Source of the DNA: Isurus oxyrinchus
Lineage: Eukaryota
Direction: 5' to 3'
NCBI GenBank assembly: GCA_026770705.1
Contig: JANJGN010000009.1
Coordinates: forward strand, 162,936,001-163,000,000
Length of the DNA stretch: 64,000 bases
Part shown: piece after piece, positions 4,719 through 63,682 of the stretch
How the letters are laid out: each line of letters opens with the position of its first letter
Position numbering within the stretch: position 1 is the first letter of the stretch
The notes under the pieces: model-generated
Told to the model about the DNA's origin: nothing
Database searches by the model: none
What the model saw: only the letters and a program-made list of their open reading frames with translations
Translations under genes and position numbers: made by a program

Positions 4719-5583
4719 AGAGACATACTTTGTTGAGACAGGGAGAGCGAGAAAGACAGAGAAACAGAGCAAGAGGCACTTCATGGAGACAGACAGCAAG
4801 AGGGAAAGAGAGAGAAACTTTGTTCAGGCACCTTGTTGAGACAGAGACTGAAAGAGAGCGATACCTTGTTGCTTCAGACAGAGAGAGACCTTTTTGAGTG
4901 GGGGCAGGGTGGATCAAGAGAAAGAGTGAGAAACGCTGGTGGAGAATCTCTGGTCCACTGGGAGTGAGGGAGATGATTGCTTTTGAAGTTTAGTGGGCCC
5001 AACTAATAAAACCACAAACCCCCCACTGCATTACCAGCATTGCCATCGTTCAAAGTACAGTGATTCTCAAATTGATGTAATTGTTTCTAGACTGATTTAA
5101 GCTTGAGTTTAACCTTTTTTTTACATCAAGGTATAGAGTAGCTAATTACCTCAGGGAGATGTACAAAGTATATAAAATGATGAAGATTTTATAAATGTAG
5201 GAAAATAGACAGCTGGAAGTGAATCACAGGTTAAATTGTGACATTGGAAACTAGGAAACTGAAATATTACTTTTTGTTATTCTATAACTACATGTGAGGG
5301 CTCTGAATGATGTGCTCAATATTTACTAAAAATGATGATCATGCAAGTCCCATTCACCCATCACCCCTGTGTTGGCTGATCTATATTGTTTCCCAGTCCG
5401 CTTTCACCTCAATTTTAACATTTTCATCCTCATGTTAAAATTCCACCAATGCCTCATTGCTCACCATCTCTGTACCCTCCTCCAGCCTTACAACCTTCCA
5501 ACAGCTCCGCATCTTCCACCTCTGATCTCTTGTGCATCCTCCACTGCCTTTACCCAACCATTAGCAGCCATAACTTCAACCGT

Positions 5584-5822
5584 AAAATACAAGCAAAATT
5601 CTGCGGATGATGGAACTCTGAAATAAAAACAGAAAGTGCTGGAAAAACACAGCAGGTCTGGCAGCATCTGTGGAAAGAGAAACAGAGTTAATGTTTTGAG
5701 TCCAATATGACTCTTCCTTGTTCAGTTCCAAAGAGGAGTCATATTGGACTCAAAACATTGACTGTTTCTCTCTCCACAGATGTTGCCAGACCTGCTGAGT
5801 TTTCCCATCATTTTCTGTTTTT
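5584..5822. mobile_element. Palindromic PLE 3'-end insertion (older subfamily) inside an L2 fragment
   Basis: Inverted arms centred at about 5720. 14-bp TSD ataacttcaaccgt (5570-5583 / 5823-5836). Confidence 0.8.
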
Positions 5823-7074
5823 ATAACTTCAACCGTGCTGCCCTTAATATCTGAAATTTTCTTCTTAAATCTCTTTGACTCTCAACCTCTGTCTCTTTCT
5901 TTGAGACAATCCTTAAATTATAAGTCTTTGAGCAAGGTTATTAGTCACTGGTCCTAATAATTCCTTCTCTGTCTTGGTGTCATTTTTTGCCTGATAGCAC
6001 TCCTGAAAAGCACCTTGGGACATTTTACTATGTTAAAGAAAGTATATAAATGCAAGTTGTTGTTGATTTGTATGCCATTGCGTAATTGGTATTATTAGGA
6101 GTCTTTTTGTCAGTTACTGAAATTATTGAGATTATACAATTTTACATAGACACTACTTATCTGGTCATGTAATAGACATGCTACATATTATGTACATAAC
6201 ATCCATTATGTACAACATACATAAAACACTATGTACTGTACATAATTTACAAACACACTGCATATTACATAAAACACACGTTGCTTTAGAAATGGTACAC
6301 CACAGTCCTTAGAAACCACATAGTTTCACAATATAAATTGGATTATGTTTTCGACTGGGTGGACAATCATTTGACACTATGCAAACGAAAGCATGGAAAT
6401 TTTGGTAGTCTGGCCAATATTTATGGCTCAGCCAGCATTAACAGGAAAGATTATCTAGTCAATGAGCTGGTCACTGTTAATTGGATCTTGCTGTGCACAC
6501 AACGGTTGCTGTGTTTCCTTACATGACAGCAGCCCCTTACATTAGCAAGATGTTAAAAAGTACTTGATTATCTGTGTTGCATTTGACACATTCTGGGATC
6601 GTAAAGGATGCCATGTTAAAGCAAATTCTTTTTCTCTTACCAATTAGCCTATTGCCTTTCTAAACAACAATTCTTTCATATATTGTGTCAAGTGCAACTA
6701 ATGCATCAAAAATGCAATTTTTAAAAGTAAACATTACATCCCACTTCTGCTCAAAACTCTGGAAAGAACTATGTTTGTTCCCCCGTTGGTCTGTCTGAAA
6801 CAAACACATCTCTCTATTTCCATTGTTTGAAATCCTGTGGATTAAACCCCCTCAATCCAAGATTTCAATGATCCAACATACTCCAGTAATGTGAATTTTC
6901 ACTAAACTTTATGTAAACATTCATATTTTTCTGGCCAATCTGTCACCTCATTCTGACTTTGTGGATGAGGTAGAGTTGCCCAGCATCTACATCCTATTTG
7001 GCCCTTAGCTGAGATTCGGAGTCAACCGACCACCTATTTTCACCATCATTATATCTTCTGTCTCTGTCCATCAG

Positions 7075-8068: not shown

Positions 8069-10215
8069 AGACCCTCCATCATGCTGTGTGGCATGACCAC
8101 TGTGCTAAATGGGATAGATTTCAAACAGATCTAGCAACTCAAGACTGGGCATCCATGAGGTGCTGTGGGCCATCAGCAGCAGCAGAATTGTACTTGAACA
8201 AAATCTGTACCCTCATGGCCCGGCATATCTCCCACTCTACCATTACCATCAAGCCAAGGGATCAACACTGGTTCAATGAAGAGTGCGGGAGGGCATGCCA
8301 GGAGGTGTCAACCTGGTGAAGCTTTAACACAGGACTACTTGCGTGCCAAACAGCATAAGCAGCAAGTGATAGACAGAGCTAAGTGATTCCACAACCAATG
8401 GATCATACCTAAGCTCTGCAGTACTGCCACATCCAGTTGTGAATGGTGGTGGACAAGTAAACAACTCACAGGAGGAGAAGGCTCCACAAATATCCCCATC
8501 CTCAATGATGGAGGAGCCCAGCACATCAATGCAAAAGATAACACTGAAACATTTGCTGCAATCTTCAGCCAGAAGTGCTGAGTGGATGATCCATCTCGGC
8601 CTCCTCCTGAAGTCCCCAGCATCACAGATGCCAGTCTTCAGCCAATTCGATTCACTCCATGTGATATCAAGAAATGGCTGAAGGCACTGGATACTGCAAA
8701 GGCTATGGGCCCTGACAATATTCCAGCAATAGTACTGAAGCCTTGTTCTCCAAAACTTGCGACGCCCCTAGTCAAGCTGTTCCAGTACAGCTACAACACT
8801 GGCATCTACCCGGCTATGTGGAAAATTGCCCAGGTATGTCCTGTACACAAAAAGCAGGACAAATCCAACCCAGCCAAATACCGCCCCATCAGTCTACTCT
8901 CCATTATCAGAAAAGTAATGGAAGGGGTCATCAACAGTGCTATAAAGTGTCATTTACTCAGCAATTATTTGTTTGAGTTCCGCCAGGGCCATTCAGCTCC
9001 TGACCTCATTACAGCCTTGGTTCAAACATGGACAAAAGAGCTGAACTCCTGAGGTGAGAGTGATTGCCCTTGACTTCAAGGCTGCATTTTACCAAGTGTG
9101 GTATCAAGGAGCCTGAGCAAAACTGGATTCAATGGGAATCAGGGGGAAATCTCTCCGTTGGTTGGAGTCATACCTAACACAAAGTAAGATAGTTGTGGTT
9201 GTTGGAGGTCAGTCACCTCAGCTCCAGGACATCACTGCAGGAGTCCCTCAGGGTGGTGTCCTCAGCCCAACCATCTTCAGCTGCTTCATCAATGACCTTC
9301 CTTCCATCACAAGGTCAGAAGTGGGGATGTTCGCTGATGATTGCACAATGTTCAGCAGCATTCATGACTCCTCAGGTACTGAAGCAGCCCATGTCCAAAT
9401 GCAGCAAGACCTGGACAATATCCTGGACAAGTGGCAAGTAACATTCATGCCACACAAGTGCCAGGCAATGACCATCTCTAACAAGAGAGAATTCAACCAT
9501 TGCCCCTTGATGTTCAATGGCATTGCCACCACCAAATGCCCCAATATCAACATTCTGGGGGTTACCATTGACCAGATACTGAACTGGAGTAGCCATTTAA
9601 ATACTGTGGTTATAAGAGCAGGTCAGAGGCTAGGAATAGTACTAAAGCTAACTCAACTTCAGACTCCCCAAAGCCTGTCCACCATCTACAAGGCACAAGT
9701 GATGGGATACTTCCCACTTGCCTGGATGAGTGCAGCTCCCACAGTCCCACAGCACTCAAGAATCTTGTCACCATCCAGGACAAAGCAGTCCACATGATTG
9801 GCATCACATCCACAAACATTCACTCCCTCCACCACCAACACACAATGGCAGCAGTGTGTACCATCTACAAGATACCCTGCAGGAATTCACCAAGGCTCCT
9901 TTGACAGCACCTTCTAAACCCACGACCACTCCAATCTAGAAGGACAAGGGCAGCAGAAAGATGGGAACACCACCACCTGGAAGCTCGCCTCCAAGTCACT
10001 CACCACCCTGACTTGGAAATATATCGCCATTCCTTCACTGTCACTGGGTCAAAATCCTGGAACTCCCTTCCTAACAGCACTGTGGGTGTTGCTACACCAC
10101 AGGGACTGCAGTGATTCAAGAAGGCAGCTCACCACCACCTTCTCAAGGACAACTAGGGATGGGCAATAAATGCTGGCCCAGCCAGCAAAGCCCACATCCC
10201 ATGAATGAATAAAAA
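8069..10215 (+). mobile_element. 5'-truncated CR1/L2-group LINE (family A), degenerate ORF2 reverse transcriptase
   Basis: KAMGPDNIP, YRPISLLS, GVPQGGVLSP and MFADD motifs across frameshifted ORFs. 3' tail ..gggcaataaatgctggcc..atgaatgaataaaa. Inserted in a SINE. Confidence 0.92.
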
Positions 10216-10266
10216 AAGTAAATAAACTGAGACCCCGTCCAACTTCTCAGGCAACATAAAAAACCC

Positions 10267-10470
10267 AGCAGGTCTGGCAGCATCGGCGGAGAAGAGTTGA
10301 CGTTTCGAGTCCTCATGACCCTTTGACAGAACTCTGAGTTCTGTCGAAGGGTCATGAGGACTCGAAACGTCAACTCTTTTCTTCGCCGATGCTGCCAGAC
10401 CTGCTGAGTTTTTCCAGGTAATTCTGTTTTTGTTTTGGATTTCCAGCATTCGCAGTTTTTTTATTGTTAT
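10267..10470. mobile_element. Palindromic PLE 3'-end insertion inside a SINE
   Basis: Inverted arms centred at about 10334. TSD-like ataaaaaa(aa)ccc on both sides. Confidence 0.85.
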
Positions 10471-11532
10471 ATAAAAAAAACCCTGTGACACCATTTGTAA
10501 GAAGGGCAGGGAGTTATCCCTGGTATCCTGGCCAAAATTGATCCCTCAATCAACATCACAAGATCAGAGTACCTGGTCATTATTGTATTGCTGCTTGTGG
10601 GAGCTTGCTGTGTACAAATGGGCTGCTGCATTTCTGACAATACAACACTTCAAAAGCCGGCTTCAGTGGCTGAAAAGTGCTTTGGGATGGTGGCTGTGAA
10701 AGGTGCTATGTAAACGCAGGTCTTATTTTTACACAAACCGGTGATACATATATTGGTAGAATTTTATTCTGTGGGACTAAAGTTCACAATTGTAGTTATA
10801 AGGTAACTCTTTGTTCTTGTGTGTGCACACATACACACACACACACACATTGATAAACCTCCCAAGTTCATCCCAGTCGATGTGTGGAGTAATTGCTGCC
10901 ATTGGGGGGTAAAGTTGGAAACTCCGCAGAGCTGGAGCCTGAAAAGACCTGTCGTGGTCCCCCCCACCCTTCAAAATGAGTCATCCACACGGCGTGTTGG
11001 TTCCGTGCCAGTGAAGTGGATCCAGATCCAGCGCTAGGAGCCCAGGCGAAGCTGCTGCTTCTCCCTCTCGCTACACCCTTCATTCAGCTCAGCCACCAGC
11101 ACCTCCTTTCAGGCGAATTGCTGGGGGGTGGTGGAAATTGGGTTTTAATTAGAAAACAAAAACTTCCAGCTAGTATTTCCACTGGGTAAACCCGAAGAGC
11201 AGCTCGGGGGACCTGCACTGTTATATATGACCAAGACGCAAGTGTTAAACTTTATATTTTTTATTTTGAATTGTAATTGGGGGATTTAAGAGAGACAGAG
11301 AGAAAATTGGGCTGTGGCATTGGATCAAACTCCAAATTTAACCCTCGACCTCCATTAGCTGGGGGACAATATTTTGTACAATTCGAGTTTATTCTGCGGA
11401 GGATCGAGGGCTGAAAACTTTGAAAAGTTCCTGAGAATTTTAAAAATCGGAATTTATCCCTTTTTTTGGGTTTTTTTTTGGGAATTTTACTTTTTTTTCA
11501 TTGAAAGACCTTTTCTCTCTCTCTTTTTGGCT

Positions 11533-12617
11533 ATGTTGGGCTGTTCTGAACTGGCCGCTCGCCCTGTCCGGAGGACCGCCTGGCTGGTCAGCGCCCTGTC
11601 CCACCACCTGGGTCCGGAGGGCGAGGGCGGGCAGGTGGACAACGAGGTGGTCGTCCTGGCCACGGGGGTGGACCAGTACCTGCAGGAGACCTTCCACCAC
11701 CTGGACGGCGAAGGGGACGGGCTGATCTCGGGGGAGGACTTCCGCCGGCTCTGCTCGGTGCTGGGGCTGCCGGGGGACGGGGGCCCCGCCGGCTTGCTGG
11801 CCGGACTGCCCGCCGAGCTGACCTTCCGCCAGTTCCACGCCCGGCTGTGCGAGCATTTCCAGCAGCGGGGCGAGGAGGGGCCGGGCCGGCTGCCGGTGGG
11901 GGAGGAGACCGAGCACATCGAGAGGCAGATCCGCCTCCGGTGCCCCCGCCGCCAGAGGAGGAGGAGGAAGCAGCAGCATCAGCAACAATGCGTCTCCTTC
12001 GACCTCTCCGCCCAGGGCTGGCGGCCGCGACCCACCGCCGGAGCGCCGCAGGGTCGCGGCGCCCCCGCCGCCGCCGCCGCCGCCCCGGCCCCGCTGGAGC
12101 TGGAGCTGGAGCTGGAGCTGGAGAACGCCAGCCTGCGGGAGCTGGTGGAGGATCTCCGCGGCGCCCTCCAGAGCAGCGACGCCCGCTGCCTGGCGCTGCA
12201 GGTGGGGCTGCAGAAGTTCGGCGGCCCGAGTGGCCGGAGCAGCTGGCCGAGGGAGAGGAGAGCCAGGTCCGGGGAGGGCAGCTGCTCGGCCAGGCCGGGC
12301 TGCCGGGGGTTCCAGAGCCTGGTCCGGGAGCTGGAGTTGATCAGGTCCTCCAGGGATGGGCAGATCGACGAGGCGATGCGCTTTAACCAGGAGCTGGAGG
12401 AGGAACTGCGAGCCGCTCACGGTTTGTTGGTGCAGTGGGAGCACTCCGCCTCGGCACTCAAAGCTGGCAATGCCCTGGTCAGGAAGAAGGCAGAGCGAGC
12501 GAGGGCAGCTATCCTGGAGGGCATGGAGAAGGTGAAGGAGCTGGAAAGCAGAGCTAAGCAGATCCCAGAACTGCAAAGCAGAATCCAGGAGCTGGAACAA
12601 GAGCTGGAGCGATGCAG
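11533..12617 (+). CDS. EFCC1: EFCC1-like (EF-hand and coiled-coil domain protein), coding exon 1 of 7
   Basis: Translation ([89 protein letters not shown]) matches recalled EFCC1/CCDC48 motifs. ATG at 11533, donor AG|GTCAGT, phase 2, CpG-rich. Orthologue versus paralogue is unresolved. Confidence 0.9.
11550..12430. promoter_or_regulatory. CpG island over EFCC1-like exon 1
   Basis: Very GC- and CpG-rich stretch in an otherwise CpG-depleted window. A TATA-like ttatatat lies upstream at 11221-11228. Confidence 0.7.
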
Positions 12618-12751
12618 GTCAGTGGCGTGAATCTTTCATGGGGATGGGGGCGTCACTGGCGAGACCAGCATTTGTTGTCCATTACCAATTGCCCTTGTGC
12701 AGCTTGCTAGGCCATTTCAGAGGGCAGCCAAGAGTCAACCACATTACTGTG

Positions 12752-13303
12752 GGCCTGGCCAAGTTGGCCATTAACAGAGATAAAAACAAAGAAAACTGCG
12801 GATGCTGGAAATCCAAAACAAAAACAGAATTACCTGGAAAAACTCAGCAGGTCTGGCAGCATCGGCGGAGAAGAAAAGAGTTGACGTTTCGAGTCCTCAT
12901 GAGGGTCATGAGGACTCGAAACGTCAACTCTTTTCAACTCCGCCGATGCTGCCAGACCTGCTGAGTTTTTCCAGGTAATTCTGTTTTTGTTTTGGCCATT
13001 AACAGGTCCAGGCAGCGGGCGATCGGGGGAGTCCCGCCCGATTGCTTGTCCCTCTTCTGTGGCTACGTTCGCGGCCAGATGTCCCTGGAGAGGGAGCACG
13101 CGGTGTCTGCTGGCACTCTTTCCGTGCCCGGTGGGCACCACGGGGACTGGGGTGTTTTGTTGACCCCTTTAATCACATTTTGATTTAAAGTTTGTAAGGT
13201 TCCTTTAAATTTTGTTCTTTGGTTTTACAGCTGACCTGAATTAGGGGCTGTGCTTGATTTGACCTCATTTTGTTGATTTGGTTTAATTGGTTACACCTAA
13301 AAG
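12752..13303 (+). mobile_element. Tx1/L1-like LINE 3' end, inserted in a SINE and interrupted by a PLE palindrome
   Basis: LAKLAINRSRQRA..CLSLFCGYVRGQMSLEREHAVS resembles a Tx1-clade ORF2 C-terminus. T-rich 3' UTR; host SINE sequence att(a/g)ctgtggg is repeated on both sides. Confidence 0.6.
12778..12991. mobile_element. Palindromic PLE 3'-end insertion inside a Tx1/L1 fragment
   Basis: Inverted arms centred at about 12903. 14-bp TSD ttggccattaacag (12764-12777 / 12992-13005). Confidence 0.88.
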
Positions 13304-20880: not shown

Positions 20881-21337
20881 ACCCAATACTTACTTTGCTG
20901 CCCGGCTCCTGGACTTAGGCTCTGTCATGTTGAAGCACTCCCTCTTCTGTCCACTGCAGCTCCTGAACCTGCAGGAACTAGAGAGCTGCTGGCTGACAGC
21001 TTCCTAAGGCAGCACTTCCTCCTGAGGGAGGCGCGGAAATCCCACCTGCAGCAGATGACGCTCATTTGAGTGTTACTCGGAGTCAGTGGGGGTGCGTCCC
21101 CTGCTGACTCTTTGGAAGGCGGGATGGAAACCCTACCATCCGAAATGACCCAGCCTTTCTCTGGAAATTCTCATCCCGCTTTTCCTGGTGTCGGCCCACG
21201 TTTCAGGTAATATTTTTAAACCAGAGTAGTCTTCCTGAGTACAATGTGGCAACAGAAGACACCCTGCATGCCCCCAGTGCATATCGGGCTGAACAGAATT
21301 TTGTTAGGCTGGAGTAATGGCCTCTGTGCATAAAGAA

Positions 21338-22832
21338 CATTACTCTGCAGTATCAATGCTGAGTGAAATCACTGTACGTTACTCTGCAGCAGCAATGCTG
21401 AGTGAAATTACTGTACATTACTCTGCAGCATCAATGCTGAGTGAAATCACTGTACATTACTCTGCAGTATCAATGCTGAGTGAAATCACTGTACCTTACT
21501 CTGCAGCAGCAATGCTGAGTGAAATCACTGTACCTTACTCTGCAGCAGCAATGCTGAGTGAAATCACTGTACATTACTCTGCAGCAGCAATGCTGAGTGA
21601 AATCACTGTACCTTACTCTGCAGCAGCAATGCTGAGTGAAATCACTGTACCTTACTCTGCAGCAGCAATGCTGAGTGAAATCACTGTACCTTACTCTGCA
21701 GCAGCAATGCTGAGTGAAATCACTGTACATTACTCTGCAGCAGCAATGCTGAGTGAAATCACTGTACATTACTCTGCAGCAGCAATGCTGAGTGAAATCA
21801 CTGTACCTTACTCTGCAGCAGCAATGCTGAGTGAAATCACTGTACCTTACTCTGCAGCAGCAATGCTGAGTGAAATCACTGTACATTACTCTGCAGCAGC
21901 AATGCTGAGTGAAATCACTGTACATTACTCTGCAGCAGCAATGCTGAGTGAAATCACTGTACATTACTCTGCAGCAGCAATGCTGAGTGAAATCACTGTA
22001 CATTACTCTGCAGCAGCAATGCTGAGTGAAATCACTGTACATTACTCTGCAGCAGCAATGCTGAGTGAAATCACTGTACATTACTCTGCAGCAGCAATGC
22101 TGAGTGAAATCACTGTACATTACTCTGCAGCAGCAATGCTGAGTGAAATCACTGTACATTACTCTGCAGCAGCAATGCTGAGTGAAATCACTGTACATTA
22201 CTCTGCAGCAGCAATGCTGAGTGAAATCACTGTACATTACTCTGCAGCAGCAATGCTGAGTGAAATCACTGTACATTACTCTGCAGCAGCAATGCTGAGT
22301 GAAATCACTGTACATTACTCTGCAGCAGCAATGCTGAGTGAAATCACTGTACATTACTCTGCAGCAGCAATGCTGAGTGAAATCACTGTACATTACTCTG
22401 CAGCAGCAATGCTGAGTGAAATCACTGTACATTACTCTGCAGCAGCAATGCTGAGTGAAATCACTGTACATTACTCTGCAGCAGCAATGCTGAGTGAAAT
22501 CACTGTACATTACTCTGCAGCAGCAATGCTGAGTGAAATCACTGTACATTACTCTGCAGCAGCAATGCTGAGTGAAATCACTGTACATTACTCTGCAGCA
22601 GCAATGCTGAGTGAAATCACTGTACATTACTCTGCAGCAGCAATGCTGAGTGAAATCACTGTACATTACTCTGCAGCAGCAATGCTGAGTGAAATCACTG
22701 TACATTACTCTGCAGCAGCAATGCTGAGTGAAATCACTGTACATTACTCTGCAGCAGCAATGCTGAGTGAAATCACTGTACATTACTCTGCAGCAGCAAT
22801 GCTGAGTGAAATCACTGTACATTACTCTGCAG
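21338..22832. repeat. 39-bp minisatellite, about 38 copies (tactctgcagcagcaatgctgagtgaaatcactgtacat), in EFCC1-like intron 3
   Basis: Perfect 39-nt periodicity with no spacers. Confidence 0.98.
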
Positions 22833-23884
22833 TTGCAGGGGAAAGTGCAAAGTCAAAGCTTTTCTGTAAAGTCCTGCTGGCCAGCAGCTCTCCAGTCCCT
22901 GCAGGAACAGGAGCTGCAGTGGACAGAAGAGGGAGTGCTTCAACATGACAGAGCCTAAGACCCGGGCCGGACGGCAAAGTAAGTTTTGGGTTTTTTTTTA
23001 AATTTCATTTGTGGGATGTGGGCGTCGCTGGCTAAGTCAGCATTTATTGCCCATCCCTAATTGACCTTGAGAAGGTGGTGAGCTGCTTCCTTGACACCAC
23101 TGCCGTCCACACAGGTTTCAGAGGCAGCCCGCTTTACTTTAAAATGCTAGTTTGCGGTTTCTGCTGTTAAGTTACGACATCACTTCATAAACAGTCTATC
23201 ACGTTACACCAAGCTCCTCGGGCATTTTCTTCTTCTCCCACCCTGACACCACAATTGCAATAAATGTCAAGAATCATTCTCGCCACAGAAGATAAATAGC
23301 TCTTACTTAGCAGAAAATTATAAATTGCACACTTGATGGAAGCCAAATTGCCTTATTCATCACTGTCCGTGTTTAACAATCCTAACCAATAGCTGTCAGC
23401 AGTTCAGAAGCAGCTTAAAGACTATTTTCCCCCCCACCTTCAATGGTCATAAAAGTTCCCCATAGCACTCTTTCAAAGAAACCTTACCATTCTTTCCAAT
23501 ATTAATGCCTCAACTAACGTCTGTAAAGCCAGATTATCTGGTAATTTATCTCATTGCTGCTTGTGGGACATTGCTGTTTGCAATTTGGCTTCTACGTATC
23601 ATACATTTCAACAGTGTCTACACTCTAAACAGCACTTTTATTGGCTCTGAAACACTTGAGACATCCTGAGGTTGTGAAAGACGTTTTGTCTTTAAAACCA
23701 TTGAGTCCATTTAACTCTTTGCATTGTTTCTAGTATTTGTTCAATATCCACGTTAATCACTCACATTATATTAACTCCCTTTACCAAGCAACAGCTGAGC
23801 GGGGATACTTACAATTTAGCAGACTTTTTGGGGGTTGGTACCTTTTATTTAGGACTTATTTTAAATTCTTGTCAGATCCTATAG

Positions 23885-24685: not shown

Positions 24686-24771
24686 GGTTCTGTTGAACTC
24701 GAAACGTTAACTGTGTTCCTCTCCGCAGATGCTGTCAGACCTGCTGAGTTTTTCCCGGTATTTTTATTTTT
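24686..24771 (+). mobile_element. PLE 3'-end fragment (older subfamily)
   Basis: ctcgaaacgttaactgtg..gcagatgctgtcagacctgctgagtttttcc matches the family. Confidence 0.7.
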
Positions 24772-28246: not shown

Positions 28247-28277
28247 TGTACGGAAGTGGACAGATGCCATTGAATGG

Positions 28278-34170: not shown

Positions 34171-34350
34171 ACAAAAACAGAATTACCTGGAAAAACTCAG
34201 CAGGTCTGGCAGCATCGGCGGAGAAGAAAAGAGTTGACGTTTCGAGTCCTCATGACCCTTCGACAGAACTTGAGTTCGAGTCCAAGAAAGAGTTGAAATA
34301 TAAGCTGGTTTAAGGTGTGTGTGGAGGGAAGGGGGGAGGGCGCGGGGGCG

Positions 34351-34381
<31 letters not shown>

Positions 34382-43172: not shown

Positions 43173-46023
43173 CATGAGATATATGTTTTTTTAAATTCTT
43201 TCATTGGATGTGGGCATCACTGGCTGGACCAGTATTTATTGCCCATCCTTTGTTGCCCTTGAGAAGGTGGTAGTGAGCCACCTTCTTGAACCATTGCAGT
43301 CCGTGTGGTGTAGGTATACCCACAGTGCTGTATAACGTACATAGTAAGATGAGCATTTATATTGTGCCTTTCTAAAACATCTCTAAGCATTTCATGTATA
43401 ATTAATTACTTCTGAAGTGAAGTGACTGTTTTAATGTTCATAAGTATGGCAGCCATTTTGTGCATGGCATGATTCCACAGACAGTAACAAAACAACGGTA
43501 GTTAATCTGTTTTTTGGTGGTGGTTGAAAGAAGAATTTTGATGTGCGCATCTTGTTCTTATTCAAACTGTGCCATGGGATCTTTAACTTTCACTTAAGCA
43601 AATAGACTGGGCCTGGATTTAATGCTTCATCTGGGAAATAGCACCTCTAACAATGCAGCACTCCCTCAGTACTGCACCATTCTGCAGGGTTAGAATGAGC
43701 ACTCCAGTCTTCAGAGCAGAGATTGAAATATACATATACCTAATTGGTATATTTGAAAGCAAATGCCTCCAAGAAAAATGGAAATATTTCAACTAAATGT
43801 TCTATAATCTATAATTTAAACATTATCTTATGCTGATTACAATGTGGCAAATTTTGACCATTATGTTCAGACTGAAGTATTGATATCGCTTCACATTTTC
43901 TCATTCTTTCACACATCCACAGCCCTTATGCACCAAGAAGACACAGACTGCAAGCTAAGTACTATTTAATCGCGCAGTGAATGATAAATCATCCTACACT
44001 AAGACTGTAAATACTCTAAGGACCAGGCAAAGTAACATGATCAGATGTTGATGCTAAATCCATTCCCAGAGATTAGGAGCGAGGCACAGTAAGCGTGTTA
44101 TTCAACTAGAAAGAAAGAGTTGCTTCCACTCCGATAAAGATGTGGCATCTCCAGAGGACGTGAACTCAACTCCCAGCATGGCGTGTTGAAAAACTGAATT
44201 CAGTTCAGAAATAAAATCTGGGAGTAAAGAACTGGGATCAGTAAAAGCGACCATTGGATCTATCCGATTGTCAAACAGCTAGTGTTTCAAATTCAGCTAT
44301 TTGAAAACCAGCGATGTCCTAAAACCGAACATTTTTTAAGTCTGTCATGCATAAATTTGAATTAATATTCGATGAGTAAAATAACTTATTGGTTTGTTCA
44401 GCTAGGTGCAGCGTTGGCACAGCAGCACACTGACTACTTATTGACTTTGCGCACCTGTGTTTCCCACACTCCAGGTGGCCCAGGCAACTCGACCCGAAAA
44501 CTGGCAAAATCCGAAATCCAGCATGGACTTGGTCCTGAGGTTTCTGGTTTGAAGACACTGTACCTGTAATGTAAAAAAACCCCACTGGTTTACTAATGCC
44601 CTTAAAGGGAGGAAACTAACTGTTCTTACCAAGTCTGACCAATAAGTGACTTCTGTCCTCCACCAATGTGGTTGACTCTTAACTGTCCTTAGAAGTAGTC
44701 TAGCAAATCATTCAATTATTTAGGGCAATTAGTGATGGGCAGTAAATACTGGCTTTATCAGCGATTCCCACATCCAAGAATGATTTTTTTTAAAGCATGA
44801 TAATGGCTATCTTTAGTGTCTTACATAGAATGTACAGTGCAGAGCTATCCTATATTCTTTTACTTTTTAGTTCATGGGATGTGGGTGCTGCTGGCTAGGC
44901 CAACATTTATTGCCCATCCCTAATTGCCCTTGAGAAGATAGTGATGAGCCGCCTTCTTGAACCTCTGTAGTCCACGTGATACAGGTACACCCACAGTGCT
45001 GCTAAGTTGCCACAGCCTCTGAGTTTGCTACTACCTTAAATGTATGAACTTGAAATGGGAATGACTATTCATACTGTATTATTAGTCAGTCATTCTTGTG
45101 TCAAGTATTGGCTGGATTGCAGTGTCTCCAAACGTGTGGAGTACTGACTATGTGTTACTTAAAACTGTAGTTATTTGGTTAGTGCTATCTAGAATGTAAT
45201 GTCTCTAAATAGTATAGAGTGAGCTAGTACTATCTTATAAAGTGTAGAGTTGGCAGGGTCTCTGATGAGTCAGGAGGTTGTGAGCTCATGGGAGCATAAT
45301 TGGCTGACTAGTGCAATACCAAGGGAGTACTGCATTGTAGGAAGTATTATCCTTCAGCTGAGATGTTAAGGCCTTGATCAGATGGACGGAAAAAGGTTCC
45401 ATGATATGGTGCAATTGAAACATATGCACATGATGGTGCCTGCTATTGAATGCTCTATGTTGCCAATAGTAATATCTCTCCGTCATTGTAATGTTACCAG
45501 CCTATATTATCTCAAAATGGGTATAATATTATCCTGTACATCATCCTTCCAGTCGGTGCCATATCAGATGTACACAATGTCTCTCAGAAGTTAAAGTGAC
45601 ATCCGCATTAAGTACTTCCCCTTAAATCCCCTTTCATCATCTCAGGGTGTTCACAGCCAAAGGAGCTCCTCTTTTTTGAAATGTAGTCATTGTTGAAATG
45701 TAAGGCAATGCTGTAGTTAACTTGTGCACAACAAAGATCCACAAATAGACAAGTTACTAGATGTTATGTTGGTTGAAGGATAATATTGGACAGAACAATG
45801 GGAGAGTTCACCTGCACCTTTTTAGAATAGTGCTATGGGATCTTTAATATCCACCTGAGTGGGCATAGGAGCCTCAGTTTAACGTCTCACCTGAAAGACC
45901 TCCAACAATGCAACACTTGCTAAGTACTGCACAGCCTAGATAATACGCTAAAGGCTGTTGACCAGTCCAATAGCGTCCACATACCATATCTTACAATGAT
46001 GACAGTGTTATCCTGTCTGCAGT

Positions 46024-46914
46024 GGGCTGGATTTTATGCCCCCCCTCCGCCCACCCAGTGGGCCTGTTTTCAGCAGGAGGGCAGGTAAAATATGTTGGGT
46101 TGCTAGCCTGCTCCCCTTCTGCCTACCCCCAACCTGTACCACATAATACAGGGGTGGCTAAGGCACCCACTAGGCCAGCTATTGCCCACTTCAGGCCCTC
46201 AATCCACCCCCAATGCCATAATATTTTGGTCAGTGGAAGGCTGTTTTTTCACCCAAGTTGGTGAAAGGTGAGAAGGAAGTAGGGTACATCTTTTGGAGGG
46301 TTCACTGTGTGCATCGGGGGCAGCCCTACCTAAGATCATACCTCCTCTTTGTGCCTCTCCAGCTGGCCTCTAAAACCCAATCGCACCCCACCTTAACCCT
46401 CCGTCCTGTGAGTGCCCCATCCTTCCTTGCCCAAAAACCCTGGGACTTGCCTGGGTCTGGTGTCCATGCCTGATTTCTGTGGGTCTTCTTGCAGTCCCAG
46501 CAGCGCCCACTGCTGAGCTCTGGCGCTGTTGGCACTGCTAGAGCCCCCGGCCAATCAGATTGGCCAGCAGCGCTCGAAATCGGGACTTCATTCCACTGAA
46601 GGATGGAAGTTCCACTCTCAGGTACTTAAGGCTGCCCGCTGCATAATATTGCTGTGGGACAGCCTCTTTTAAAGTCAAAACAAAAACAGAATTACCTGGA
46701 AAAACTCAGCAGGTCTGGCAGCATCGGCGGAGAAGAAAAGAGTTGACGTTTCGAGTCCTCATGACCCTTCAATAAAACTAGTCAGTTGGTTTCTGGACAA
46801 CTTTTCTTCTAGGTGGGGGGTGGTGGGGGTGGGGAGAAGTATGTTCCTTCACCAACACCCCCCCCCCCGCCCAACAACCCTCTCACCCCATCCCACCTCA
46901 TAAAAATCCAACCC
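46024..46914. mobile_element. Harbinger-type MITE containing a PLE arm
   Basis: TIRs gggctggatttt / aaaatccaaccc flanked by an agt duplication. Confidence 0.7.
46676..46770 (-). mobile_element. Single-arm PLE 3'-end fragment inside a MITE
   Basis: Identical to the short arm of the palindromic copies; no partner arm. Confidence 0.8.
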
Positions 46915-51249: not shown

Positions 51250-52275
51250 ATCATTTGAAATTTGGCATTCTTGCTTTTGTCCTGATGATGGAGAAGAGGG
51301 CAATTAAGCAGGAGGCCATGCGCACAGTGGGTATTCAGTCAGCACATCTCCCATCTACACATTCTATGTCTGAGTCCCCTTAGCTTCACTAAAAAAGAGG
51401 CCCGACCATGAGTTATGGCACCTGCTGCCACCACTCGAGTGTCATGTCAGGGCATTGACAGAACTGCCCAGAGCTGTCACGGTCACCATGACCCTTCCTT
51501 TACATGCCACAGGCTCCTTCCAGGCAGCTTGTGACACCAATGGCACCTTATACTTTGCAGACCATCGCCACATAAGGAAGGTTACTGAGGCTCTCTATGC
51601 CAGGAGGAACAGCTGTATCTCTTTCATACTGGACAGAGTGAAATGGTAGAACAGAGCTCTAGGCTTGCAGTCGTCCCCAGGCGTAAGATGCCATTGACGG
51701 CTCCCCATCGCCACCCTGACATATTTGTCAATAGAAAGTGAGTCGACTCCCTCAACGCCCAGCCTGTTTGTAGTCATACACAGCACATCACGTAGGTCTG
51801 TGCCTGGTTTCCCAGTAGCAATCACAATTCATTTATCCAGTGCCAGTCCTCTTTGCCTTTATTCCAACAAGGCCATCAGGTTATGGGCTTGGCCATTGGG
51901 TGACGAAGGCTATCACCTTCAGACTCATAACTTCTGTCAGGAACCTGGCAGAACCCCAGGTCTACAATGAGAGCCATGCTACCACCGAAAGCATCGGCAG
52001 GCACACAAAGGGCACGCCCAAGTAATATTTCTGCTGCCAGGTTTGTTCCGAATGAGCTATGCGGCACAGTCCTGAGTGGGTATTTGGATTTATGGTCATC
52101 TGCTGCATAGTCCATAACTTTGGAGAGTTCTTGTCACATGCCAGGTCTTATCACCACTTGGGCAACAGAAGTAGAATTGAAAACAAAGAAAACTGCGGAT
52201 GCTGGAATTGCCCATTAGTGCTCTTAGCTGCCAGAGCTCCCAGAGAGCAGCTCATCAAAGAGGGCTTCTCCTGAA
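51250..52275 (+). mobile_element. Degenerate Harbinger (HARBI1-like) DDE transposase remnant
   Basis: Frameshifted motifs in the correct order: VTVTMTL..ATGSFQ..HIRKVTEAL, WPLGDEGYHL, YNESHATT, HSPE..VICCIVHN. Confidence 0.75.
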
Positions 52276-53387: not shown

Positions 53388-53795
53388 CTGGACTTGACTA
53401 TTCTAATGCACTCCTGCCTGGACGCCCACATTCTACCCGCCATAAACTTGAGGTCATCCAGACCTCTGCTGTGCATGTATTAACTTGCACCAAGTCCTGT
53501 TCCCCATTCTCAACGACGTACATTGGTGCCCAGTCAAGCAAAATTTTGATTTAATAATGCTCACCCTTGATTTCAAATCCCTCCATGACCCCGGCCCCGC
53601 CCACCACCTACCACCATATCTCTGTAAACTCCTCCAGTTCCACAATCCTCTGTAATATCTGTGCTCATCTGTTTCTGGCCTCTTGTGCATCACCAATTTT
53701 AATCACTCCACCAATGGTGGCTGTGCCATCCATATTTTAAGACCTAAACTCTGGAATACCTTCCCTACAAATCTCAGTTAACTCTAGATTATAAA

Positions 53796-54030
53796 CAAAA
53801 ACAGAATTACCTGGAAAAACTCAGCAGGTCTGGCAGCATCGGCGGAGAAGAAAAGAGTTGACGTTTCGAGTCCTCATGACCCTTCGACAGCAGTTCTGTC
53901 GAAGGGTCGTGAGGACTCGAAACGTCAACTCTTTTCTTCTCCGCCGATGCTGCCAGACCTGCTGAGTTTTTCCAGGTAATTCTGTTTTTGTTTTGGATTT
54001 CCAGCATCCGCAGTTTTTTTTTGTTTTTAT
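53796..54030. mobile_element. Palindromic PLE 3'-end insertion inside an L2 fragment
   Basis: Inverted arms centred at about 53892. 14-bp TSD ctctagattataaa (53782-53795 / 54031-54044). Confidence 0.88.
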
Positions 54031-56279
54031 CTCTAGATTATAAATCTACATCACTTACCTCCTTTACAACACTCCTTAAAACCAAACTCTTTGTCAAATT
54101 GTTCGATCATCTGACCTAATAACTCCCTACGTGTCTCAGTGTCATAGCTTGTTATATGATGCTCCTGTGAAGTATTCTAAGACGTTTTATTATGTTAAAG
54201 GCACAATATAAATAAGTTGTTTTTGTTGTGAGCCTCTTCGCAGCACTAAAGGCTAAAAGAAACAGCACACTGTTCCATAAAGATGATTGTACACTATTTA
54301 GGATTTATTTGTTTTCTGTGTAGCAGAGAGGAAGCATCCCTGTTATTTGACTATCTTGAGAAGCCAATAAAACCATGGGATTATCGACATGTGTAATAAG
54401 CTTACTTGACGTGACCTCACAAGTCATCCTGCCCAGTTAGTGATGCACAACTGTCCCACTTTATTAAGGTTGATCTCAGCTGAAGTAGACTGTGCAGCAA
54501 GCAGGAAGCTGCATCCAAGGGAATTTAGGAATAACAGGAGCTATACCGGGAGATCCGGTGGTGGCATCATGACTTTACCAGATTAGCATCTTATCTACTA
54601 AGAGGATTACTGCTCAGAACGAAGAGCTTAACCTGGCAGCTCAGGATCGGAGCAAACATTTAATCAGCAAATGCGGCAGGAATCTACATAAGCTCCAGCA
54701 GGGGGGATTTTGCATGTTCCGTTTGTAATTTGTCTTTCCCTCAAATCCACTTCTCCCGCTGTTACGTTGTTAAAGAAAGCAGACACTTCCTGACTGGGAC
54801 CACCAGGAATTAGGAACAGAATCCCTCCTGCAACTAATCAACTCACCAACTCGACCACCTTTTGGACCGTTCCCTCCCCATTTGCTCATCAACCGATTTG
54901 TATTCACCCCTTGTCGCTATCACTCCAGTCTACTTTCAAATGGAAACATATATAACTAACTAGGTAGTCCACAATCCCAACCAAAACGCCATCGTTAGAT
55001 TGGTAGGGATCACAGTGTATTAAAGCTTAGAAACTACTTTAGGTATTAGGGGCTGTTTGGATGATATTCCTCTTATTTCATTGCAAATGGATTAAGGCTT
55101 CCACAAAGTAATAGAACAACGCTACACAAGCATGCCAACCACTGCAGCATTCATGAAGGTGGCACATTTCCTTCTCAAGGGCAATTAAGGATGGGCAATA
55201 AATGCTGGCCTTACCAGCGACATGCAGATCCCAAGAAAAAAAACTTTTAAAAAATATTAAAATCACCAAGTAATTTCTTTTTAAGAATAATTTCTCGTTT
55301 AAAATAGACATAGCTTTTAAAACCATAGAAATTTCAGCACAGGAGGATTTTTAGTTTATTTGTTCGTGGGATATGGGCATCACTGGCTAGGCCAGTATTT
55401 ATTGCCCATCCCTAATTGCCCTTGTTCAGAGGACATTAAAGAGTCAACCAGATTGCTGGTTGGGTCTGGAGCCACATGTAGGCCAGATCAGGTAAGGACA
55501 GCAGATTTCCTTCCCTAAAGGGGCCAAGTGAACCAGATGGGTTTTTATGACAATCGGCAATGGTTTCAGGAGTCAGCGTCAGACTGTTAATTCCAGATTT
55601 TCACTGAATTCAGATTTCACCATCTGCCATGGTGGGATTCACACCCAAATCCCCAGAGTATTACTCTGGGTCTCTGGATTACTAGCCCAGTGACAATACC
55701 ACCGTGCCACCACTTCCCCCCAAATGCCAGATTGTTCACTGTACATGTTCTAGTGAACAGCTTTAGTAACAGAACCCAAACACAATGCACATTAATTAGA
55801 ACTTGTCTCATCATATGTTAAGAAAATGTGCACTGACATCGGTACGAGGAGCAATGAAAATCTTTGGCTAAGGGCAAGAGTTCAGATGCAAGCAAGTTCC
55901 TTCTTAACATCAAAGAGGATCAATTAATTTGAAGGGCAAGGATTTTAAATTAAAGCGCGGGCACCACAAAAAAAAGGGACCTACACAGCATAGTTTACAA
56001 ACATGGTGCAGGATTCCTGATCAAGCAGAATAATTGTGCAACGTGTTTACTGGATCCACACCGGTTGGTGAAGCTAAAACTAAGACACAGCAGCTTTCTT
56101 TGCTACACAGAATTTATTGGCTTAGTTCACAGTCAACACTACTCCAAACCCCCAGTGTCCCAGCCATCCCCGTTTATATGCTGCTTTGATTTATCCCCAT
56201 TTATAGGTGGACAAATACCCATCACCTGTTTGACAATGCAATTGCCGTTAAACCTTAACAATGTAGTTCATAAGACTTT

Positions 56280-58619: not shown

Positions 58620-59030
58620 CAAAAGTAAAATACGACAGAAAGTGCTGGAAAGTCTGAAGAAGAGTCATATTCGGCTCAAAACATTAACTCTGTTTCTCTC
58701 TCCATAGATGCTGTTAGACCTGTTGAGTATCTCCAGCATTTGTGATGCTTATCTCCTTCTGTGTCATTGGTGGCAAGTTTGGCTTTTTATAATGCTCCGG
58801 TGAAGCACCTTGGGGCATTTTACTACATTAACATTTACTATGTAAATACAAGCAGTTTACAAATACAAGCTGTCATGCTGTGGTTTCAGGTAGCAGTCGC
58901 CTCTCATCAACCAGCCACCTCATGACATTAACTGTATCCCTCTCCGCAGATGCTGTCAGACCTGCTGAGTTTTTCCAGCTATTTTTGTTTTTGTTTCAGA
59001 TTTCCAGCATCCGCAGTATTTTGCTTTTAA
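58620..59030 (+). mobile_element. Two older-subfamily PLE 3'-end fragments (58620-58745 and 58926-59030)
   Basis: ctgaagaagagtcatattcggctcaaaacattaactc (CUGAAGA core) and gatgctgtcagacctgctgag..ccagcatccgcag. Confidence 0.65.
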
Positions 59031-61333
59031 CTTCCTGACAGCAGCTAGTTAATCATGAGAGATTTAAAATATGCCAAGATAGGTTTTTGTGCAGGGTGAG
59101 AGTTAGGAACGACTTTTGTGCGGTAAACCCATGGAGTGAGACTGTCTAAGCTCACGTTTCAAAGAAGGCTCACTGCTGGCAGATAGAAGGAGACTCTCCA
59201 GTTATTCATCCAGGTTGGATTTTAACCAAAGGAGCTTTGGCAATGTCAACATCGAACTCACGGTTCCATCCGGATTTTCCATCTCAGAAATGGTTTCATC
59301 TGCATTATTCTGCAAAGAAATGGATGGCCACACTGATGACATATGGAAACCATAGAAACAAAAGCATTTTTAGAATTTTTTTCAAATGAGCAACATGATC
59401 CTAAAGGTCAGGAGAAACACCACAAGGTTATTTTTCCTTTGGTAGTATCTAATCTGTGAATGGGACTACGTGGCCAGAATAGATGTCCTTCGGAACATCT
59501 ACGGCAAGTAAAGTATTTGTTTCCTCATGTGTCAACTTTTGTTAAATTGTCACAATTTACAATCTTTTTAACCAGGCTCCCTGAAAACCTCTATTCTTCT
59601 TTAGCATTTTCCCATTCATGAAACTGAGCAATGCCACATCTGAATTGGAGCCAATCTTCGCTCTCTGTCCCCTTCCCCTCCCCTTGCCATCTCCACCTTC
59701 TAATTTACCATGAGTTCCTCATAATTGGCCTTTAACAGGCTTTCAACAATTAAGACGCTGGGTGGTGGCTTGCTAATTCCTATGAACTCTACTTGGGGTA
59801 GTGGCACAGATAATCCAAACATTTTTAACCTGTGATTCCAACACACAGACTGGCACGAAGGTTATAACACAGGGGTTCTTTATTCCAATCGCATCCAATC
59901 TTCTTGAACGTTAATGGAAAAGCTTAACTTAGAGGAACAAACTATTTATAATGGATATTCACGGCCAATGCTCCAGATTCCAGGATACGGTTGAGAGCTT
60001 AACTCTTGATCTCTAATCAGCCAGATAGCAGAATTCAATTGGTATAGCTCCCATTGCTAATTTCCTGTGACCATGTGAACTCAGTTACCATGTCTCATGG
60101 ACACGAAGGGGGTCTTCCTCTTTTTGTGCCCTCTCGAGCTCAGGGGTACTGTCCAAGTTGTGTGCCCAGCTCTCTAGTGGTTGTTTGCTCCCTCTGCTGC
60201 TGCTTCCTGGCTCTGTCACCATCATCAGAGGCCTTGGCCTGCTCTATTCATGGCCTTGGCTCCTCAACGCTATGACTCACCACCCTCGAACTTCTACTTC
60301 AGCTGCTTGCTGCTGCCCTTCTCTCCCTATCTTCGCGAGGTGCCTGGTCCTTCCTTCTTCAGCCCACACCCCGAGCTCCAGACTCCACCTCCCTCTTCTT
60401 CAGCCTGCACTCTGGGCTCAGGCTCCACCCCCAGCCCCCAGCTTTGCCTCTTGTCCTCAGGGGAGACCCCAGGGCCCACCTAATCCCTTGCCTGGCATCC
60501 TCTCAGGCCGACAGACCTCCACTGGCAGAAATCTAGTGCCCTGCAGGGAATGCCCCATAGTCGGCAGGGCCCAGCTTCAGGCCCCAATCCAAAATCGGGA
60601 CTCTGAGGGCCCACTCACCTCCCCCACCACACACTTTGAGTAAAGAGGTTTTTAATAACAATTTTAGGTTTTTTTTTGCTAATTCAAACTTATAGCCTCT
60701 GCTGCTCCTGACCTAGTTTAGTTTTAAGTAATTTTCTGGCTTTATTTATACCAGTATCATTTATGTAGATGGTCCGGCCATTTATTTAATTGCTACTTGT
60801 GGGATCTTGCTGTGCACAACTTGGCTGCTGCATTTTCTATATTACATCAGTGACCACGCTTCAAAAAGTACTTCCCGAAATGCCTTACAGCCAATGATGT
60901 CCTGAATTTGTCAAAGGCTCGATATAAATTCCAGTCTTTTTTTCTGCAGATTTAATATTGTTATATCTCAAGGACCGACAACAGTCTGTGTTTATAGAGT
61001 GTTTTACTAGTAAAACATCCCAAAATGCTTCACAGAAGTAGAATTTGACACTGAACCACAGGAGGTCAAGGCGGGAAAAGATGTAGGTTTTAAGGAGAAT
61101 CTTAAAAGGAGGGGAGCGATGTAGTGAGGTGATGAAATATAGGGAGGAAATTCCAGAACTTGGGGCCTAGACAGCTGAAGGCACGACTACCAAAGCTGGA
61201 ATGATGTGAACAATGCCCTGATTGGAGGAGTGCAGAGATCTCCGAGGGCTGTAGGACAGGAGAAGATTACAGAGATAAGGAGAGATAAGACCAAGGAGGG
61301 ATTTGATAACAAGGATGTGCAAAGGCAGGCTCT

Positions 61334-62103
61334 GCGACCGCTTTGCAGAACACCTGCAGTCTGTCCGCAAGAATGACCCAAACCTCCCTGTCGCTTGCCA
61401 TTTTAACACTCCACCCTGCTCTCTTGCCCACATGACTGTCCTTGGCCTGCTGCATTGTTCCAGTGAAGCCCAACGCAAACTGGAGGAACAACACCTCATC
61501 TTCCGACTAGGCACCTTACAGCCTTCCGGACTGAATATTGAATTCAACAACTTTACGTCGTGAGCTCCCTCCCCCATCCCCACCCCCTTTCTGTTTCCCC
61601 CTTCCCTTTTTTTTTCTAATAAATTATATAGATTTTCCTTTTCCCACCTATTTCCATTATTTTTAAAAATTTTTAAAAATCTTTTATGCTCTCCCCACCC
61701 CCACTAGAGCTGTACCTTGAGTGCCCTACCATCCATTCTTAATTAGCACATTCGTTTAGGTAATATCACCAACTTTAACACCTATGTGTTATTTTGTTCT
61801 ATTGTTGTTGACATCTTTTGATGATCTGCTTCTATCACTGCTTGTTTATCCCTACAACCACACCCCCCCCTCCACTTCTCTCTCTCTCTCTCTCTCCGCC
61901 TCCCCCACACACACACCTTAAACCAGCTTATATTTCAACTCTTTCTTGGACTCGAAATCAAGTTCTGTCGAAGGGTCATGAGGACTCGAAACGTCAACTC
62001 TTTTCTTCTCCGCCGATGCTGCCAGACCTGCTGAGTTTTTCCAGGGAATTCTGTTTTTGTTTTTGTTTTGGATTTCCAGCATCCGCAGTTTTTTTGTTTT
62101 TAT
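61334..62103 (+). mobile_element. Penelope-like element, 5'-truncated: GIY-YIG endonuclease C-terminus plus 3' UTR/pseudo-LTR
   Basis: ORF ..DRFAEHLQSVRKNDPNLPVACHFN..H..VLGL..RKLEEQHLIFRLGTLQPSGLNIEF is typical of the PLE endonuclease C-terminus. The 3' end is shared with the palindromic copies. Candidate TSD caggctct (61326-61333 / 62104-62111). Confidence 0.88.
61961..61999 (+). ncRNA. Minimal type I hammerhead-ribozyme-like motif in the PLE pseudo-LTR
   Basis: AGUU-CUGUCGA-A-GGGUC(AUGAG)GACUC-GAAAC-GUC-AACU gives stem I, core, stem II, GAAA, palindromic ACGU stem III and a GUC site. The core has U in place of A6. Confidence 0.6.
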
Positions 62104-63682
62104 CAGGCTCTTTCTGTCTAGCTTTGCTAATTAGGGGTGCAGAAATTCCTTCAGTTCTTTCTCTTCCATTTTTAAACACGTGTAATTCTTATTTTCTTCC
62201 ATCACAGGGGAACAATTGTCGTATTTAATGGCTATTTTTTTAAAATTCTGAATCGTTTCATTGTTTGTCAAGGTTAAAAGGACATCTCAGTAATCCATGT
62301 AGCTAGATCACTTTGCATAGATCATTAGCTACTTTTCCCTTTGAGCAACAAATGATGCTCTTGTGATGGGACCTGCTAAGCCCTTCAAACTAATCCAGAT
62401 TTCATTGCTGAACTTTTAAAACACTGGTTGGAACGAGTACTTGAGGTCATATGTGCATACATTAAAAAAAGGGTAACCAGGGAGCAACTGGTCCATTAAT
62501 TCCACCTTGTCATGGTGTAGCTTCTATACAGCATCATCCTCTTGCCCCTGCCACCATATCCGTGTCCACCCCCATGCAGCCAAGCAATCTCCCAGGAGAG
62601 GCAAATGAACGGTGATAGAGATAGCGATTGGAATTCCCTCTAATCAAAGCACCCAGGGTCAATATCCAGCAATTCAGATACAGCATAACCAGACCTAGAG
62701 TAAAGTTCCCTCCACTATCCCTCAGCAATGTGCCTCAGCCCTTACCTCAAGCAGTGTGAGGAACATTCTTTGTTCCAGTCATACTCGGGTCCCCTCCCTC
62801 ATGTATTTCTCTGGCACATTGATAGCAACGTTGGTGCTGCTTCCTGGTGTTTCCAGCGTTTGCAGTGTTTTGCTTTTGTCCCAGGCAAGCGTCTTTATCT
62901 GCATCAGTGTGATTCCTCTCTTTCACGTTCTCCACATCATCCATCCTGAGGCTTGAGTTAGGCCACCAGCCACTCTGGTACTTGAGTTAGCTTGCCAATT
63001 AAAGAAAAAATTAAACGTATAGTTTCATGCTGCAGGATTAGGTCCAGTAAGACCTGAACTAACAGTAATTAAACTCTGCTTCTGTTTCTGATTTGGTTGT
63101 GTCAGCATCACAGAGTTAAATCTGTATTCCACCACCAACATTTTTTTGGGCAGTGCTAGCTAAACCAGGCATGACTTGCTGAGATGGTAGTCCTGATAAT
63201 GAAAACCTACAAATAGAAATAATCTGAAGATGAGTCTTGAAGGTTTTCAGTGATGGGGCTGTGACTATTTCCTTTGGCAGCTTGTTCCACTGTGGGATTG
63301 TCTTTGGGAAGAAAGATTGTTGATGCGCTGTCTAGGTAATTAGTGTGGGTGGCTACCTTGAGTTTTGTCAATGCTGGAGGACACCAGATACTTGTTTCTG
63401 TCAATTCCCAACAGTCCACTCCATGTTTTATAGAATACAGTCAGTCTATTTATTTCACTTCATTTCATTTCTTGTTGGACGATTATAGCAAACGAGCTTC
63501 ACCACGTTTTTGAGGGCTGGATTCAGAGGCGAATGGTCAGCGCAAAACCCACTGCACCAACCAGGTCCCTATCTCTGACTTCTCTTTATGCTCATATACT
63601 CTATGTGGAGTCTATACACCTTCCCTATGGCACACTGTATGTCCTCTTTTTTTGTGGTAACTGTTGTTTTTCAATGTTTCAG

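Follow-up and report, generated by a model that had tools for sequence, protein, structure and literature searches.

How do two inverted copies of one retroelement end come to lie head to head between short target site duplications (TSDs)? This question is raised by a 64-kb stretch of Isurus oxyrinchus DNA (contig JANJGN010000009.1, positions 162,936,001 to 163,000,000), which was analysed as a single stretch and is called the window here. It contains six palindromes (P1 to P6), in each of which the terminus of a Penelope-like element (PLE) is present as two inverted copies. A longer copy of the element at 61334–62103 provides the reference coordinates for all arm positions, and the motif was derived from the 12 nick sites of the six loci. 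We consider it probable that the palindromes are products of PLE twin priming, in which a dimeric protein with reverse transcriptase (RT) and GIY-YIG endonuclease makes independent, mostly short insertions.

Architecture of the palindromes and their parent element

All six palindromes were recovered as local inverted pairs when the window was compared with itself, at the places given by an earlier first-pass annotation, and every arm can be aligned with the terminus of the long PLE copy. P1 (5570–5836), which belongs to an older subfamily, has a 239-nucleotide (nt) insert (5584–5822) with the tail arm on the left, within a TSD of 14 base pairs (bp; 5570–5583 and 5823–5836). P2 (10256–10483) has a 204-nt insert (10267–10470) with the tail arm on the right; its TSD copies (10256–10266 and 10471–10483; 11 and 13 bp) are unlike only in an A-run. 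The tail arm is on the left in P3 (12764–13005), where a 214-nt insert (12778–12991) stands in a 14-bp TSD (12764–12777 and 12992–13005). The remaining three have it on the right. P4 (34157–34727) is the largest, with an insert of 543 nt (34171–34713) and a 14-bp TSD (34157–34170 and 34714–34727). P5 (41337–41574) carries 208 nt (41352–41559) in a 15-bp TSD (41337–41351 and 41560–41574), and P6 (53782–54044) carries 235 nt (53796–54030) in a 14-bp TSD (53782–53795 and 54031–54044). The TSDs are exact in five of the six, and their coordinates match the lengths annotated earlier (14–15 bp in five copies, 11–13 bp in one). Of 20,000 randomly drawn pairs of 30-nt windows, placed 200–600 nt apart outside the tandem array, only one had at least 14 nt in common.

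The two arms are unequal in every palindrome. A 34-nt tail (62070–62103 on the forward strand of the reference, between the two main priming sites) is found on one arm only in 6/6, in agreement with the earlier description of one full and one short arm. The short arm lacks 41, 65, 39, 35, 59, and 40 nt in P1 to P6, respectively, so that the earlier estimate of about 25–55 nt is replaced by two classes (35–41 and 59–65 nt). Outer microhomology between the short arm and the TSD is exact over 1–4 nt in all six, as in twin-priming products, with 2, 1, 4, 3, 1, and 3 nt from P1 to P6. The claim that the short arm usually ends in 3–4 nt of the TSD is borne out for P3 (ttgg), P4, and P6 (both aaa), but not for P1 (2 nt), P2 (7/8 nt with a mismatch), or P5 (1 nt). 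At the centres, microhomology of 1–3 nt is present in P3, P4 (the TCA noted earlier), and P5 (AA), and additional bases stand in P2 (a CTG spacer) and P6. An assembly or amplification artefact is scarcely credible. Fold-back chimeras are a known artefact type, but the TSDs, an arm-to-arm divergence as high as 15%, and one element family with one design speak against it.

The long copy is 5'-truncated, runs in a single direction on the forward strand, and is flanked by an 8-bp TSD (61326–61333 and 62104–62111). By translation and homologs, its first part (61339–61563, forward strand) is predicted to encode the C-terminal 74 codons of a PLE GIY-YIG endonuclease (61339–61560), followed directly by a stop. 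A Pfam scan of this 74-residue fragment alone returned no family. Nine homologs with 53–83% identity were found among 21 candidates, the best from a skate; one exceeds the Pfam GIY-YIG cut-off and two more match below it. The GIY-YIG assignment of the first-pass annotation therefore holds indirectly, through the homolog above the cut-off (P0003), which is 63% identical over 97% of the fragment length. P0003 also has a CX4CxxC linker, and homolog P0007 has, by eye, an RT-like stretch upstream of the endonuclease; truncation within the endonuclease has removed these regions from the window copy. A CX2-5CxxC motif ahead of GIY-YIG is described as a feature of Neptune and Nematis (PMC8557442), and a Neptune-like affiliation is more probable for the element than a Poseidon one. 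By its predicted GIY-YIG fragment, putative hammerhead motif, and tail with inverted copies, the source of the palindromes is an endonuclease-containing (EN+) PLE. No full-length or tandem PLE copy was present among the window matches.

Five single copies or fragments accompany the palindromes, which make up 6 of about 11–12 copies in the window. Tail-less single copies lie at 46678–46779 (reverse strand, 5-nt TSD) and at 24685–24770 (forward strand, older type, 7-bp TSD). A tail-only fragment is located at 52181–52204 (reverse strand, 6-nt TSD), and for an older-type single copy with a tail at 58930–59029 (forward strand), no TSD could be found. The stretch 58621–58741, absent from the first-pass annotation, is probably a decayed seventh palindrome from the older subfamily; by eye, its tail arm is internally deleted, and no TSD was found. 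No TSD of at least 7 nt was detected at 46677, 52180, or 58650/58930; the 5- and 6-nt TSDs come from a separate search and are weaker than those of at least 7 nt.

Nick-site motif and putative internal priming

The sequence 3' of the 12 nicks has the consensus GTTGCC at positions +1 to +6 (G6, T8, T8, G7, C6, and C6 of 12). Both nick sites thus carry one symmetric motif, GGCAAC-N14-GTTGCC, which is a lead of moderate strength. Its information content is significant against random window positions (p=0.0001), after correction for choosing the best among 11 windows (p=0.002), and after removal of any single locus (p=0.0002–0.023). Tail-side nick sites predict short-side sites and vice versa (p=0.01), and no signal was found at positions +7 to +16 beyond the nick. 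Between loci, neither the motif positions nor the 14 nt of each nick are homologous, although repeats are shared elsewhere in the flanks. The five single copies offer nine predictable nicks that were not part of the motif training set. Two of these are strong, namely an exact GTTGCC at 52180, 14 nt into the flank of the tail-only fragment (p=0.0008), and GTTGGT at 46779, the predicted bottom nick of that copy (p=0.004). Fisher's combination over all nine gave p=0.0013.

The same motif at both nicks and the tight 14-nt spacing would not be predicted if first-strand priming were followed by a jump of template, in which the top-strand end, at first a normal primer of the second strand, landed on a second RNA or another pseudo-long-terminal-repeat (pLTR) copy, and a host enzyme made the second nick. 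Such a template jump would make a simultaneous dimer unnecessary, and indels that differ between the arms of one palindrome suggest two templates, as it would require; we nevertheless regard it as very unlikely.

The starts of the arms point to two priming sites inside the RNA. Short arms start at the U-tract 62063–62069 in four copies and at 62033–62040 in two, and these tracts (within 62033–62069, forward strand) are the putative second priming sites. Tail arms start at the outermost U-tract. Both tail-less and tail-bearing single copies exist, and hence each priming site works on its own. The base after the tail's final AT is C in four of the five young copies that reach this point, and CT in three; although the sample is small, this suggests that the template continues past the tail and that priming is internal. 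No poly(A) was found at the arm starts, where both arms begin at internal U-tracts. Published PLE starts are likewise internal, and the earlier proposal of priming from the RNA 3' end is not upheld. Around these sites, at 62040–62050 (forward strand), most young copies read CAG/GTAATT, which resembles a splice donor; the long copy has G for T there. PLEs keep introns, and the priming tracts and the tail may lie in one.

In the pathway that we propose, the structure, the TSDs, and the junctions are observed here, whereas the in vivo dimer, the stagger, the start of the RNA, and cDNA joining are inferred. An RT-GIY-YIG protein, probably as a dimer, would nick both strands about 14 nt apart, just 5' of GTTGCC-like motifs, and the staggered nicks would leave two 14-nt 3' overhangs. 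Each 3'-OH would anneal by 1–4 nt to an internal U-tract of the RNA and prime complementary DNA (cDNA); priming at the outer tract would give the tail arm, and priming 35–65 nt upstream would give the short arm. When priming takes place in the terminal repeat near the RNA 5' end, the template would end after 70–140 nt at about 61961, which would produce the inserts of 204–239 nt. Priming in the 3' repeat would produce longer arms, as in P4 and the long copy. Each cDNA would extend as far as the RNA start or dissociate before it, and the two ends would be joined through 0–3 nt of microhomology and filled in to leave a palindrome between TSDs. If one end only is primed, the other overhang would be trimmed, and the product would be a lone copy flanked by a short TSD.

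Arms, centres, and alternative origins

Self-priming is the published reading of palindromes at inverted PLE junctions (PMC3846280). In this reading, the cDNA or an antisense RNA snaps back, the hairpin is joined to the second target end, and the centre is trimmed later. It directly accounts for the single tail in 6/6, and a natural quasi-palindrome (GAACT-CA-AGTTC at 61953–61964) adjoins most centres. However, a single fold-back would leave the short arm nested within the tail arm. The inner ends of the tail and short arms are 61961/61961 in P2, 61976/61972 in P3, 61835/61809 in P4, 61960/61963 in P5, and 61961/61965 in P6. The short arm thus extends inward beyond the tail arm by 4 nt in P3 and 26 nt in P4, and P1 probably follows this pattern by eye. 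Because the short arm has these private nucleotides while the tail arm has the tail, neither arm of P3 or P4 is a copy of the other, and neither palindrome can be made by a single fold-back without later deletion. P5 would need a one-base loop, and P2 and P6 do not discriminate. Moreover, the U-tract at which four of the six short arms end is also where two tail-less single copies (46678 and 24685) end. Fold-back is therefore considered unlikely.

An origin from a palindromic non-autonomous master, similar to a miniature inverted-repeat transposable element (MITE) or a short interspersed element (SINE), can be weighed with the same data. Such a master would have been amplified as a unit, with decay of the centres and of one end afterwards. 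Five of the six inserts fall within 204–239 nt, the centres are clustered, and the young arms are nearly identical (0–3 differences in 48 nt), which leaves an arm-against-arm phylogeny without power in the young copies. On the other side, no two palindromes share a centre, and the short ends vary, with microhomology between each of them and its TSD. Variants specific to short arms or to tail arms are absent, and the lone shared deletion, of 5 nt, affects the short arm in P2 but the tail arm in P4. The older subfamily (P1) repeats the same design. Amplification as a unit is accordingly given little probability, and the earlier view of independent events rather than copies of one MITE is supported by the differing centres and outer ends and by the missing side-specific variants.

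Base by base, the centres differ in every copy, as annotated before, but five of the six cluster at about 61960–61976 with a limit at 61960–61961 (four scored, P1 by eye). This cluster coincides with the 5' edge of a putative minimal type-I hammerhead of the terminal repeat (61961–61999, forward strand), one of seven descriptor matches in the window. The motif consists of a 4-bp helix I, the core CUGUCGA (A6 to U), an extra base, a 5-bp helix II, and GAAAC-GUC. The extra base before helix II, a G-C pair, and palindromic 15.2–16.2 positions are among the features listed in PMC4209133. An Rfam search of 61800–62200 returned no hammerhead and only two chance matches to long non-coding RNAs, and the ribozyme call thus rests on the descriptor. 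The core of the young subfamily (61965–61971) departs from the canonical CUGAAGA of an older copy (58655–58661); self-cleavage may be weakened or lost in the active family. Self-cleavage was rejected as the cause of the cluster, as the predicted cut at 61995/6 is about 35 nt away.

The clustered inner ends suggest that the RNA 5' end is probably at about 61960–61961. The single copies at 24685 and 46779 also start near this point, the latter only if three substitutions are allowed (strict start 61970). A weak TATA-like TTATAT lies about 30 nt above the putative start (61928–61961, forward strand). In the older copy, the word TCAGTT resembles an initiator. A cap-copied C in the spacer of P2 (C-T-G) was also considered and rejected, being indistinguishable from the quasi-palindrome at 61953–61964. 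Regarding secondary structure, folding of the tail arm by itself is unremarkable (z 0.69) and thus offers nothing to indicate a stem that binds protein. P6 folds as an RNA hairpin of about 95 bp (z −30).

Several points weigh against twin priming in the form proposed. A tail arm is paired with a tail-less arm in 6/6, which has p=0.016 if each arm chose independently at 50:50, and the start site in vitro is equal between strands in the published account (PMC11167929), so that six discordant pairs need extra coupling. Copying one RNA twice would require strand displacement. The RNA start follows from the junctions alone, and the quasi-palindrome could instead draw the junctions there. With six loci, the motif was defined post hoc, and the two strong single-copy nicks were spotted by eye before the test was fixed; the other seven of nine are non-significant (p 0.17–0.83), and the bottom nick of the long copy is off-motif (p=0.79). 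Palindrome centres are prone to deletion after insertion, which would blur the argument from P3 and P4 and make the case against fold-back less firm. Arm-discordant indels recur in other copies (P2 and P4, 5 nt; P1, 2 nt), and they are a hint of either two templates or recurrent slippage.

Twin priming is nevertheless favoured. Priming from both 3'-OH ends of a cut with a stagger of about 14 nt is supported by the symmetric nick motif, the unique sequence in each arm of P3 and P4, and the both-strand activity of a PLE protein in vitro (PMC11167929). In the first-pass mechanism, independent events and two-end priming stand, and the start at the RNA 3' end and the contrast drawn with L1 do not. 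A bolder form, which we hold tentatively and somewhat doubt, is that the cut of the dimeric RT-endonuclease is two-fold and guided by GGCAAC-N14-GTTGCC, and that its two RT sites are obliged to differ in RNA start. Twin priming might then be the normal PLE pathway and the origin of the inverted pLTR and one-sided tail, and run-off at the RNA 5' end might seed about one near-perfect hairpin of 70–100 bp per 10 kb.

Known systems, neighbouring features, and significance

An inverted 5'-truncated copy and a 30–40 nt tail, often at one end, are standard PLE features (PMC8557442). In A. vaga, copies lie head to head with TSDs of 8–10 bp, for which self-priming from an antisense template has been proposed (PMC3846280), and in Schistosoma, paired hammerheads stand on opposite strands 100–700 bp apart (PMC4209133). 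Prior knowledge was therefore understated in the first-pass annotation, since head-to-head copies, one-ended tails, and TSDs had already been described. D. virilis Penelope and A. vaga Pen2a (PMC8557442, PMC3846280, PMC2377424) share with the palindromes a head-to-head inverted truncated copy, a one-ended tail, a TSD, a terminal-repeat hammerhead, and GIY-YIG at the C-terminal end, and the tail of D. virilis Penelope is also 34 nt. In contrast to published EN+ PLEs, the inserts here consist of two inverted ends only, without an open reading frame (ORF), a two-fold target motif is visible, and the TSDs are 14–15 bp instead of the 8–10 bp of A. vaga. The published explanation, as given in these sources, is self-priming or is left open, whereas twin priming is proposed here.

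The nearest biochemical parallel is the anole PLE protein Poseidon_Ac, for which nicking and extension of both strands have been shown in vitro (Frangieh et al. 2024, PMC11167929). Two internal RNA starts near the hammerhead bound its tail, ATT is preferred at the nick (the T-rich motif here is GTT), and a dimer is predicted. That paper leaves both-strand extension unconnected with inverted copies in genomes, gives no stagger, and reports no strand bias of the start site. In L1 twin priming, both target ends also prime (PMC2912911), with microhomology joining and TSDs of about 14–16 bp. The second L1 primer is described as random and far upstream, whereas here it is fixed 35–65 nt from the first and nearly the whole insert is duplicated. 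The earlier contrast, that PLE duplicates rather than merely inverts, was overstated, as internal duplications with a median of 22 bp accompany 17% of the inversions produced by L1 twin priming (10.1101/2024.08.27.596794), and the difference is only one of degree. The palindromes have the junctions of twin-priming products, with a TSD in 6/6 and outer microhomology, but lack poly(A) and are no L1 product.

Non-LTR retrozymes (10.64898/2026.07.22.740005) are likewise short non-coding PLE-derived sequences with a type-I hammerhead. They are reported as head-to-tail tandems, whereas the palindromes are head to head with TSDs, and no tandem array of the element occurs among the seven TRF rows of the window, its pairs being inverted. 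MITEs are also short, with inverted ends, a TSD, and no ORF, but their ends and centre are fixed; here all six centres differ, the arms are asymmetric by 35–65 nt, and the origin is a retroelement.

Other features of the window include an unrelated 1.1-kb AT-rich palindrome (3625–4719) in a single copy, with arms about 85% alike and no TSD of at least 7 nt. Inverted pairs of another common repeat (55176–55424 and 44707–44945) are about 70–78% alike and about 100 nt apart; by resemblance, they are presumably ends of long (LINE) or short (SINE) interspersed elements. A 39-bp tandem array (21337–22832; 38 copies, 98% alike) is flanked by an 86-nt inverted pair (20908–20993 and 22880–22965), and a mobile element with a minisatellite inside it is a possible explanation. 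Three distinct arrays (265–532, 1872–1958, and 2769–2855) are built from one and the same 21-bp minisatellite unit. RT fragments with Pfam RVT_1 lie at 9117–9797 (forward strand) and 42631–43200 (reverse strand) and are presumably CR1/L2-like. A large GC-rich coding exon at 11533–12627 (forward strand) matches Pfam CCD48 with an EF hand, and we take it to be EFCC1/CCDC48-like. P2 is about 1 kb upstream of this exon, and P3 is about 135 nt beyond the end of its reading frame.

The architecture and the two-primer idea are thus already known in kind; the additions are the symmetric nick motif, the probably separate templating of the arms, and the centre zone. No explicit PLE twin-priming model, 14-nt symmetric site, or shark PLE palindrome was found among the literature matches listed, with PLE papers of 2002–2006, Repbase, and Dfam outside its scope. 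Six to seven palindromes per 64 kb, in one window that may be atypical, would make a dense source of double-stranded RNA and cruciform-prone DNA, and two of them (P2 and P3) flank a coding exon. The origin of the tandem or inverted PLE structure and of the one-sided tail is called undefined in PMC8557442, and the steps after the first strand are described as unvalidated in PMC11167929. The PLE step that follows first-strand synthesis is recorded most cleanly in minimal palindromes whose TSDs are intact, and three predictions can be drawn from these palindromes, namely a 14-nt stagger, the same motif at both nicks, and a separate template for each arm.

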